Source: Gemmatimonadota bacterium (GTDB lineage Bacteria; Gemmatimonadota; Gemmatimonadetes; Palauibacterales; KS3-K002). Taken from it: DNA of 64,000 nucleotides. This document shows positions 55,031 to 64,000 of this stretch, in pieces. The stretch lies in the NCBI GenBank assembly GCA_036475815.1, contig JAZGAL010000175.1:4403-68402 (forward strand), in the 5' to 3' direction. The position numbers and the translations under genes were made by a program. The notes below the pieces were generated by a model. The model saw only the letters and a program-made list of their open reading frames with translations. It was not told the origin of the DNA and searched no databases. The stretch's first letter is position 1. Each line of letters begins with the position of its first letter.

Positions 55031-55797
55031 GCGTGGGCGCTGTCGATCTGCGCGAGCTCGTCGCCTATCTGGACGAGTATCTGGAGATCGCTGCGGTGCC
55101 CGACTTTCCCGGTGCCGCCAACGGCTTGCAGGTAGAGAACAGCGGAGCGGTCAGCAAGATCGCGGCCTGTACCGATGCCTGCCAAGCCACGATCGAGGCG
55201 GCCGCCGGGCTCGGAGCCGACCTGCTGCTCGTTCACCATGGCCTCTACTGGGGTGCCGGACTCAGGCCGCTCACCGGCCGCAACTACCGTCGCGTGCGGA
55301 AGCTGGTCACCAGCGACATCGCCGTCTACTCGGCTCATCTTCCTCTGGACGTCCATCCAAAAGTCGGGAACAACGCCGAGCTGGCGCGTGGCATCGAGCT
55401 GCGCGTTCTTGGCCGGTTCGCTGAAGAGCAGGGTTGCGCCATCGGCGTGTGGGGCGAGCTGAACGTTCCTCGGGAGGAGCTAATAGAGCGGCTCCAGAGA
55501 CTGCTGGGTCATGAGGCGTTCGTCATCGCAGCGGGCCCGGAGGAGGTTCGGCGGGTAGGGGTGCTCAGCGGGGGCGGTGGAGCGCACATCGGGGATGCGC
55601 ACCGCATGGGCCTGGACACCTTCATCACGGGCGAGGGAGCCCACCACACGTTCTTCGACGCGCAGGAATGGGGGCTGAACGTCTTCTACGCGGGCCACTA
55701 CGCGACGGAGACGTTGGGGGTGAAAGCCCTGGCGAACCAGCTGAGCGCGAAGTTCGGTCTGGAGTGGGAGTTCATCGACCACCCGACGGGCCTGTAG
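55027..55797 (+). CDS. Nif3-like dinuclear metal centre protein
   Basis: Start placed at GTG 55027 (GTGA overlap with guaA). [25 protein letters not shown] and TGEGAHH motifs are typical of the NIF3/YbgI family. Confidence 0.85.
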
Positions 55798-56143
55798 GCT
55801 CGTCGTCGCGCGACCGCCGGCGATCTTCCACGTTGGATGAGTCCTGCGGTTCGGGACTCCGCAGCCGCCTCTCGATTTCCAGCCAGACCTCACTCAAGTA
55901 CTCGGGATCGTCTGCATAATGCTCGGCGAAGCCCAGCAGGTCTTCCTGGCTGACACCGCGTCGGTCGAGGATCTCTTGGGCGCGCTGCGAGGCGGCGACT
56001 TCGTCCGGCTCCTCATCGGCCGCACGCAGGATCTCCACATAGATGTCGACGTACTGCTGCTGACTGATGGGGGGGCGCTCGATAACCTTGTCGCAAGCCG
56101 TCACGAGCAAAAGGGTGCTCAGGGCCAAGACGGCCCCGAGCAC
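55772..56143 (-). CDS. small hypothetical lipoprotein
   Basis: This is the C-terminal 123 codons of the 55772..57133 track ORF. A GTG at 56143 gives LGAVLALSTLLLVTAC-DKV (lipobox) followed by an acidic helical domain. It lies 35 nt downstream of the OPT gene stop. Its 3' end overlaps the convergent nif3 gene by 26 nt. Confidence 0.5.
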   Translation of the reverse strand: MLGAVLALSTLLLVTACDKVIERPPISQQQYVDIYVEILRAADEEPDEVAASQRAQEILDRRGVSQEDLLGFAEHYADDPEYLSEVWLEIERRLRSPEPQDSSNVEDRRRSRDDEPTGPSGGR

Positions 56144-63486: not shown

Positions 63487-64000
63487 ACTTCAGAGGCTGG
63501 CCCGTCTCCCATGGCCTGTATGTGTTGCAGAAATCTATCCGCTCGCCGAGCGGTGGGTGAGTGGCGCGCCAGAGCTTGTACAGAGGTCCCGGTCTCGGAT
63601 TGCTCAAGTTCTCGGCCTGCAGCTTCACGAACGCGGTAGCGGCGCCATGGTTATCTCGCGTGATTTCCAGCCCGAACCGATCGGCTTCGTGCTCCATGTA
63701 GCGTGTGAAGCCGAAGGCTACCGGCTGGACGATCAGCCAGAAGACGGTGAAGAGCAGGATCAGCAGCGGCAAGGATGCGATGTCAGAAAGCCGGTCGAAC
63801 CTGAATCGCTCCTTGTAACGGTCGATCAAGAGTCCCGCCGTCCGATGTATCAGATATAGAACCACCAGGATCAGCAGCGAGAAGAAGAAGATGCCCTTGA
63901 TGACGTGGTACAGCACGTAGTGGCCCATCTCGTGCCCCATGACGAACAGCAGCTCGTCTTCCTCTAGCTTCTCGATCGTGGTGTCCCAGAGGACGATGCG
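63461..64000 (-). CDS. M48 (Ste24/HtpX-like) zinc metalloprotease, C-terminal part (5' end outside the window)
   Basis: The frame is open to the window edge (RIVLWDTTIEKLEEDELLFVMGHEMGHYVLYH). HEMGH zinc motif, downstream EHEADRFG glutamate and TM helices are present. Its 3' end overlaps the TBDR start by 26 nt. Confidence 0.85.
   Translation of the reverse strand, partial: RIVLWDTTIEKLEEDELLFVMGHEMGHYVLYHVIKGIFFFSLLILVVLYLIHRTAGLLIDRYKERFRFDRLSDIASLPLLILLFTVFWLIVQPVAFGFTRYMEHEADRFGLEITRDNHGAATAFVKLQAENLSNPRPGPLYKLWRATHPPLGERIDFCNTYRPWETGQPLKYEHLFAGR

Follow-up and report, generated by a model that had tools for sequence, protein, structure and literature searches.

Two lipoprotein-capped TonB-dependent transporters (TBDTs) with solved structures come from Bacteroides: the propeller lipoprotein BtuG caps BtuB in a stable complex that serves vitamin B12 uptake, an arrangement that has been stated to seem exclusive to Bacteroidetes (PMC10404256), and XusA from B. 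thetaiotaomicron (PDB 9GBC), a xenosiderophore transporter with a carboxypeptidase-like domain, has as its cap the lipoprotein XusB, a propeller of seven blades (PMC13142918). Additional candidate lid families have also been proposed (bioRxiv 10.1101/2023.03.17.533168). Here we describe a stretch of 64,000 nucleotides (the window) from a Gemmatimonadota bacterium (assembly GCA_036475815.1, contig JAZGAL010000175.1, positions 4,403 to 68,402), in which three adjacent minus-strand genes encode a TonB-dependent receptor, or transporter (TBDR; 60547..63486, 979 aa), a PD40 beta-propeller lipoprotein (59366..60550, 394 aa) and an NHL six-bladed beta-propeller lipoprotein (58290..59396, 368 aa). These three genes, hereafter the trio, are a tightly linked and conserved unit, widespread in Gemmatimonadota. 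The interpretation that we favour, with moderate confidence, is that the locus brings together several units that segregate independently and that one of them, the trio, would encode a single outer-membrane uptake complex akin to BtuBG and XusAB.

Relatives of the locus were sampled at one genome per species, which yielded 80 loci, and these were searched with six window proteins (those of the trio and those of three genes around it, for an M48 peptidase, an OPT transporter and a small lipoprotein); the loci in which the 3' end of the TBDR gene is complete and is followed by 2.6 kb or more of sequence were taken as informative (n=49). More than 280 homologues of the TBDR exist, and every named one belongs to Gemmatimonadota. 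The order TBDR, PD40, NHL on one strand is present in 39 of the 49 informative loci and, when these are restricted to a TBDR identity of at least 47%, in 39 of 44, so that the arrangement persists down to 47% identity. Elsewhere, PD40 alone stands beside the TBDR (4/49), NHL alone does so (1/49), NHL lies upstream of the TBDR in divergent orientation (4/49, with TBDR identities of 37-39%) or neither lipoprotein gene is found there (1/49). The linkage is reciprocal: a look-up that begins with PD40 orthologues at 36-38% identity recovers it too, and gene calls made independently and labelled by Pfam give the same order, with 4-nt overlaps, from the TBDR or the PD40 side. The TBDR stop and the Cys codon of the PD40 lipobox are separated by a median of 61.5 nt, and the PD40 stop and the Cys codon of the NHL lipobox by a median of 42 nt; a signal peptide takes up about this length, so the start codons normally abut or overlap the preceding stop. 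The first-pass annotation of this DNA had placed the two propeller lipoproteins in the slot where a SusD-like lid would be expected, and that suggestion is strengthened both by the conservation of the trio and by the precedents of BtuB-BtuG and XusA-XusB (PMC10404256, PMC13142918).

The neighbours of the trio, which are housekeeping genes or specific to a clade, vary from clade to clade. They comprise ClpB, HSP20 and RDD in some loci; AMP-binding, NYN and MPG genes upstream, with ETF genes downstream, in another clade; M16, an MFS transporter, Yip1 and M14 upstream, with 2-oxoglutarate dehydrogenase downstream, in yet another; and superoxide dismutase as a further clade-specific neighbour. One clade has the trio within a cox/xdh-type molybdopterin dehydrogenase cluster, between a CoxE-like VWA gene and XdhC genes, and there a third propeller lipoprotein, DUF5128-like and of about 415-430 aa, follows NHL (L084 9892..13541, L085 10150..13873, L086 6001..9810; such numbers are our labels for the loci). 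When the open reading frames (ORFs) of the 80 loci were clustered in search of a clue to the substrate, no gene outside the trio appeared in more than 12 loci, and an alignment of the region upstream of the TBDR in five loci with a divergent RDD gene there revealed no conserved block that might be a promoter or operator. Taken together with the conserved outer face of the transporter (see below), these variable neighbours would point to one fixed, widely available compound as the substrate, rather than to niche-specific glycans. As separate observations, the PD40 gene is tandemly duplicated between TBDR and NHL in two loci (L027 3553..5786, L046 6536..9009), and the trio also occurs, with its typical neighbours, on contigs labelled Gammaproteobacteria (L014, L023, L059) and Akkermansiaceae (L036), which are probably mis-binned contigs of metagenome-assembled genomes rather than instances of horizontal transfer.

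How close is the trio to the described systems? XusAB resembles it in that a TBDT with an N-terminal carboxypeptidase-like domain is encoded beside a propeller lipoprotein, and in PDB the TBDR profile finds its best sequence match in XusA (9gbc_A; E 3.7e-12, over the N-terminal 230 residues). Nonetheless, XusB is one DUF4374 propeller, whereas the trio has two unrelated propellers, PD40 and NHL, with no DUF4374 match; no XusC-like reductase gene is conserved alongside the trio; the similarity of the TBDR barrel to those of TBDTs is generic only; and XusAB is from Bacteroides, while the trio is from Gemmatimonadota and its complex is a putative one. In the case of BtuBG, the BtuB chains of B. 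thetaiotaomicron are among the highest target-normalised template modelling (TM) scores to the TBDR in Foldseek (0.58-0.64), but BtuG is seven-bladed and bears no sequence relation to PD40 or NHL. Neither BtuG nor XusB is among the PDB sequence matches of PD40 or NHL. Furthermore, no cobalamin riboswitch or other RNA leader matched Rfam at gathering thresholds in the window and six related loci, which counts against a B12-type system. BtuB is not known to have the N-terminal carboxypeptidase-like domain that the TBDR of the trio carries.

SusCD and RagAB share with the trio a CarboxypepD_reg-like N-terminus, a barrel protein of about 1000 aa, long outer loops and a downstream lipoprotein gene, although their partners are the TPR-like SusD and RagB, and those of the trio are PD40 and NHL propellers. 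An initial comparison of the TBDR with SusC and RagA concerned the N-terminal domain. RagA gives a weak N-terminal match to the TBDR profile (E 0.0033), the SusC/RagA model TIGR04056 has no match to the TBDR in NCBIfam at E <= 0.01, where weak generic TonB models alone were hit, and no SusD/RagB partner is present. By these profile matches, the TBDR is placed outside the SusC/RagA family.

A different kind of relative is Oar from Myxococcus xanthus, for which the available part of the source (PMC6434023) describes a CarboxypepD_reg extension, a plug and a 22-strand barrel, the architecture that the TBDR appears to share, and makes it necessary for the secretion of the protease PopC, mentioning no partner lipoproteins. 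By analogy, the TBDR might export instead of import, with the propeller lipoproteins as cargo or cofactors of protein secretion. The likeness is, however, that of one domain, which SusC, RagA and XusA, all of them importers, carry as well; lipoproteins are exported by a route of their own; and no conserved secreted cargo is encoded in the neighbourhood, all of which leaves export as a very improbable function.

The TBDR itself has the layout of a TBDT: a signal peptide with predicted cleavage at about A50|Q51, a CarboxypepD_reg-like domain (residues 52-135, with matches to CarbopepD_reg_2 and CarboxypepD_reg over residues 56-141; PF13715 1.1e-13, PF13620 9e-13), a putative plug (about 161-258) and a predicted barrel that ends in Phe. 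Between the N-terminal domain and the plug lies a candidate TonB box, LEVEGVEAEVER (residues 137-148). The match to the Plug family (PF07715) is weak, with 19.1 bits vs a cutoff of 23.9, but many orthologues carry PF07715, and conservation extends to the motifs FRGGRxGQExYxxDG and EIEVxTGG...GSALSG in the plug region; likewise, the barrel has no Pfam match in the scan of the window protein, whereas homologues carry PF00593. An AlphaFold2 (AF2) model has 22 strands, with predicted local distance difference test (pLDDT) values of 70-85 in the strands, and Foldseek retrieves TBDTs with it at E values of 1e-15 to 1e-11, including FptA, Fiu, PfeA and BtuB. A finer classification of the barrel by fold search was dropped, given that the matches were those of generic TBDTs.

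Both partners have the features of lipoproteins. In PD40 (PF07676 4e-23), the lipobox AGGC provides Cys25 (codon 60476..60478), and the Cys followed by R-D/E is kept in essentially all orthologues, which form an orthologous group of proteins of about 390 aa, separate from generic PD40 proteins. The AF2 model of PD40 is confident (pLDDT 90.5) and includes a long beta-hairpin (residues 266-308, 59627..59755), and Cys136, Cys143 and Cys281 are invariant. In NHL (PF01436 2.7e-28; also TEN_NHL 6.6e-26), the lipobox LGAC provides Cys21 (codon 59334..59336), and the PDB sequence matches are the NHL domains of SOQ1, of NHLRC2 and of a teneurin-like protein from bacteria. A regular expression for the lipobox Cys, with G-D/E-P and a conserved strand after it, recognised 46 of 50 NHL orthologues, and three of the remaining four show the motif in their sequences, having been missed by the expression. 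Neither lipoprotein has Asp at position +2.

On which side of the outer membrane would the two propellers stand? The reading in which the trio is functional but its lipoproteins face the periplasm, on the inner leaflet of the outer membrane, binding the N-terminal domain or the plug or else receiving or processing the cargo once it has been translocated, much as TolB or a periplasmic binding protein might, is in our estimation unlikely. Most outer-membrane lipoproteins outside a few phyla face the periplasm, which counts in favour of this arrangement, and so does the frequent enzymatic role of propellers of the NHL and SGL types, the match to SGL here reaching 33.2 bits vs a cutoff of 26.3. 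The closest fold to PD40 is, besides, the propeller of a periplasmic protein, TolB, whose structures are the top Foldseek matches, with about 336 of the 394 residues of PD40 aligning to TolB chains. However, the sequence matches between them are short propeller segments, and on the TolB equivalog TIGR02800 PD40 scores 55.2 bits vs a cutoff of 343, through the propeller repeats only; moreover, PD40 is a lipoprotein, and its gene is linked to that of a TBDR and not to pal or tolQRA. The TBDR offers a further line of evidence. Column conservation computed over 61 sequences has a mean of 0.63 in the extracellular loops (23% of columns at least 90% conserved), as against 0.51 in the periplasmic turns, the least conserved part of the barrel (0% of columns), and 0.54 in the N-terminal domain (11%); the barrel strands (0.62, 19%), which the extracellular loops equal in conservation, and the plug (0.73, 37%) complete the series. 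The periplasmic turns and the N-terminal domain are less conserved than the outer loops, and the structural change that tracks the loss of PD40, described next, also sits in an extracellular loop.

The long loops of the TBDR are all extracellular in the model: loop 2 with 45 residues, loop 4 with 72, loop 7 with 30 and loop 11 with 85. Predicted loop 7 (61429..61509, minus strand; motif QPPDFRFFLD..GDSLR.DIRRQGNP) shows the highest conservation of the whole TBDR, with a mean of 0.85 and 60% of its columns at least 90% conserved. Loop 2 carries a helical insert of 21 residues (325-345; 62452..62514, minus strand) between the conserved Cys322 and Cys350; the loop has 45 residues in PD40-linked TBDRs, but the insert is missing from TBDRs without a PD40 neighbour (seven related loci and L080), and the loop has 23-24 residues in L062-L064, L066, L068, L069 and L080. 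Predicted loop 11 contains a canonical EF-hand calcium-binding loop, DLDRDGVISVRE (residues 935-946; 60649..60684, minus strand), whose EF-hand_5 Pfam match is weak but whose D935, G940 and E946 are invariant, and the pattern D-x-D-x-[DN]-G-x-[IL]-x-x-x-E is retained in TBDR homologues down to 37% identity; loop 11 may accordingly be a calcium-binding one. Loop 10 was also considered, as its length could have marked the NHL partner, but it did not track the presence of NHL cleanly and was dropped. On the opposite face of the model, the turn between strands 20 and 21 is the most conserved periplasmic turn, and it contains an invariant cysteine pair, CRC (residues 873-875; 60862..60870, minus strand); the topology assignment may be off at this point.

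With BtuG on BtuB and XusB on XusA as the model, the uptake complex that we favour would work as follows. TBDR, PD40 and NHL would assemble into one outer-membrane complex, in which the propeller lipoproteins, anchored by their N-terminal lipids, would lie over the barrel's long and conserved outer loops or next to them. From there they would capture the substrate and pass it to the TBDR, which would import it powered by TonB, with its CarboxypepD_reg-like domain in the periplasm; calcium bound at the EF-hand would order loop 11. Complex formation, the surface exposure of the lipoproteins, the direction of transport and calcium binding are what we infer here, from a finding built on synteny and sequence conservation. 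In a more specific form, the trio might be the first stable lipoprotein-capped TBDT outside Bacteroidota, with PD40 and NHL forming a hetero-trimeric lid on one barrel, docked on conserved outer loops that include a disulfide-bridged loop-2 insert and the calcium-binding EF-hand, and importing one conserved nutrient across much of Gemmatimonadota; this we put forward as a tentative possibility. Our literature search found no paper that combines NHL, PD40 and TonB-dependent transport, and given this and the exclusivity claimed for Bacteroidetes, the trio is a credible new variation on the capped TBDT and a good target for experiments.

Several points weigh against the proposed complex. The nearest fold of PD40, that of TolB, is reached at a TM score of about 0.47 in Foldseek and belongs to a protein of the periplasm, the top 50 Foldseek matches of PD40 include neither BtuG nor XusB, and neither lipoprotein matches DUF4374 or any SusD family in Pfam. 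The AF2 model of the TBDR is of medium quality (mean pLDDT 60.6, plug <50), and the loop assignments depend on it. The correlation between the loop-2 insert and PD40 has an exception, L038, and the loss of the insert amounts to just one or two independent evolutionary events, which leaves it suggestive, nothing beyond. Five informative loci with a TBDR identity of at least 47% have a TBDR without one of the two lipoproteins beside it. Conserved outer loops could also reflect direct substrate binding, with no need for a lid. Lastly, no machinery that brings lipoproteins to the cell surface is known from Gemmatimonadota.

Gemmatimonadota belong, as Bacteroidota do, to the Fibrobacteres-Chlorobi-Bacteroidetes (FCB) superphylum, and they are plentiful in soils, sediments and sponges, although experimental work on them is scarce. 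As stable lipoprotein lids of TBDTs have been shown structurally only in Bacteroidota, the trio is a concrete target for asking whether the lid principle is older and more widespread than that phylum. Its phylum, its pair of unrelated propellers and its EF-hand loop set the trio apart from the capped transporters of Bacteroides. The trio also raises questions of its own: how would one barrel fit two lids? How do lipoproteins reach the cell surface in Gemmatimonadota?

The first-pass annotation had gone further than the trio and proposed that the locus could form a complete route from the outer to the inner membrane for peptides or a metallophore. In such a six-gene pathway, the TBDR and its two lids would import the cargo, the OPT transporter would carry it across the inner membrane, and the M48 peptidase and the small lipoprotein would assist. 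Some features of the window are in keeping with it: the six genes are co-directional and closely spaced, likewise in L001, L003, L005, L007 and L008; in two clades, peptidase genes immediately precede that of the TBDR (M48 in one, M14 with M16 in the other); and the transporter (56179..58146, minus strand, 655 aa) is a bona fide member of the OPT family, matched over its full length (TIGR00733 360.6 bits, cutoff 182.5; PF03169 5e-83, 280 bits, residues 18-612), with no solved relative in a PDB search. The six-gene pathway appears, nonetheless, largely refuted by comparative genomics, and we consider it improbable. OPT follows the trio in only 5 of the 49 informative loci, in every one of which the TBDR identity is at least 59%. 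In L081 (1..18004 of that locus), from the complete Gemmatimonadota chromosome CP070812.1, whose OPT is 83% identical to that of the window, the gene order matches the window flanks, with ClpB-HSP20-RDD, then OPT and a 105-aa protein at the position of the small lipoprotein, and then Nif3-GuaA-ProRS-HisRS-FolC-AccD, but nothing lies between RDD and OPT, and M48, TBDR, PD40 and NHL are all absent there, which makes the trio an insertion or a deletion relative to the flanking synteny block. Conversely, in L002 (4581..10169) the small lipoprotein comes immediately after the trio, OPT being missing between them, so that the place of the small lipoprotein does not depend on OPT. Other OPT orthologues, 74-76% identical, occur in unrelated contexts with no TBDR; a TBDR is lacking beside OPT in L081, L082 and L083. 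The transporter is also far more conserved than the trio, with identities of 70-93% within Gemmatimonadota and 55-58% to matches from Acidobacteriota, Latescibacterota and KSB1; the two do not, then, share an evolutionary tempo.

OPT has, in addition, a conserved upstream element of its own. A conserved block (58245..58290, minus strand) reads CGCTTGACAyGCCG, 9 variable nt and CCTACGCTGTCGCGGCTTCAC; TTGACA stands at 58286..58281, and TACGCT comes 17 nt further downstream, followed by GTCGCGGCTTCAC. Its core is invariant in the seven upstream regions compared (window, L001, L003, L005, L007, L008 and L081), and it is kept in L081 although the gene upstream is there a divergent RDD and not NHL; its conservation is therefore independent of the upstream gene, which argues for an element that belongs to OPT. 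The block has the appearance of a promoter, perhaps joined by an operator or a leader, and OPT is probably transcribed from its own promoter. The TTGACA hexamer had been picked out from the start as a promoter candidate, and it is indeed present, within this block; a scan of 55500..64000 for two-hexamer sigma-70 promoters and for terminators, not designed for this phylum, found none. As for the gene order, that of TBDR, PD40 and NHL has proved to be conserved, whereas the linkage of OPT and M48 to them has not, and co-expression of OPT with the trio appears doubtful in view of the upstream block. An unconserved order around OPT and an apparently independent OPT are two findings that the two-membrane proposal had itself named as telling against it. 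OPT is a unit independent of the trio, and OPT with the small lipoprotein, and M48, are separate genes that adjoin the trio only in this sub-lineage. The adjacency of OPT and the trio is, in other words, a local accident of gene order, and it is no basis for annotating the OPT substrate or for a two-membrane pathway.

The most probable start of the small helical lipoprotein (55772..56143, minus strand, about 123 aa; Cys codon 56093..56095 in the lipobox LVTAC) is GTG 56143, with GAGGGAAGG as the ribosome-binding site before the start codon. Its signal peptide, the Cys and the motif REEYIDIYVEILRAA...DLLxFA...DPExL..W.EIE.RL are kept in L001, L002, L003, L005, L007 and L008, and it has no match in Pfam, NCBIfam or PDB.

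At the other end of the locus, the M48 peptidase gene (63461..>64000, minus strand) is truncated by the end of the window, which retains the C-terminal 179 codons (PF01435 2.4e-25), with the zinc site HExxH present as HEMGH. M48 lies upstream of the TBDR only in L001, L041, L057, L070 and L071, with fragmentary matches in L061, and the full-length orthologue of L070 combines Peptidase_M48_N and M48 and matches yeast Ste24p (4il3) at 3.4e-34. By these matches M48 is a Ste24-like zinc metalloprotease, a lineage-specific neighbour outside the conserved unit. In one clade (L038, L044, L047 and L048) it is an M14 carboxypeptidase gene whose end meets or overlaps the start of the TBDR, in a way comparable to M48 in the window; genes for an M16 peptidase, for Yip1 and for an Atg22-like MFS transporter come farther upstream. 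The presence of upstream peptidases in two clades is a weak hint at peptides as the cargo, and peptides are, for the trio, a possible but unsupported substrate.

Regarding the layout of the locus, the six minus-strand genes between 55772 and 64000 were all recovered by an ORF check and by domain searches in Pfam and NCBIfam, which bore out the domains initially assigned to them. The junctions first described are also correct on the longest ORFs, where M48 and TBDR overlap by 26 nt, TBDR and PD40 by 4 nt (TTGA) and PD40 and NHL by 31 nt, and a gap of 143 nt separates NHL from OPT. Some starts admit, however, more than one choice. The TBDR may begin at ATG 63486 or at an in-frame GTG at 63438, which improves the signal peptide and would convert the 26-nt overlap with M48 into a 22-nt gap, and in PD40 an in-frame GTG at 60532 could supplant the TTG. 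Both GTG codons are equally good or better than the longest-ORF starts, and with them two of the overlaps turn into short gaps. The NHL start, ATG 59396, is unambiguous.

The remainder of the window holds housekeeping genes (ribosomal proteins, NusA/IF2, PNPase, HisRS, ProRS, GuaA and Nif3), and no TonB, ExbB or ExbD gene lies within it. Two long plus-strand ORFs with high third-position GC (55919..56215 and 58230..59405) run antisense to the genes of the small lipoprotein and of NHL; both ORFs were rejected as genes and read as shadow ORFs of a high-GC genome. A dip in AT skew at 46-48 kb was likewise set aside as a notable feature, as it corresponds merely to the gene of a RodA/FtsW-type membrane protein. 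Between HisRS and ProRS, on the plus strand, an ORF of 187 aa (51071..51634) has a lipoprotein-like N-terminus, ALLGAHVVAC, and L081 carries a 131-aa gene at the matching spot.

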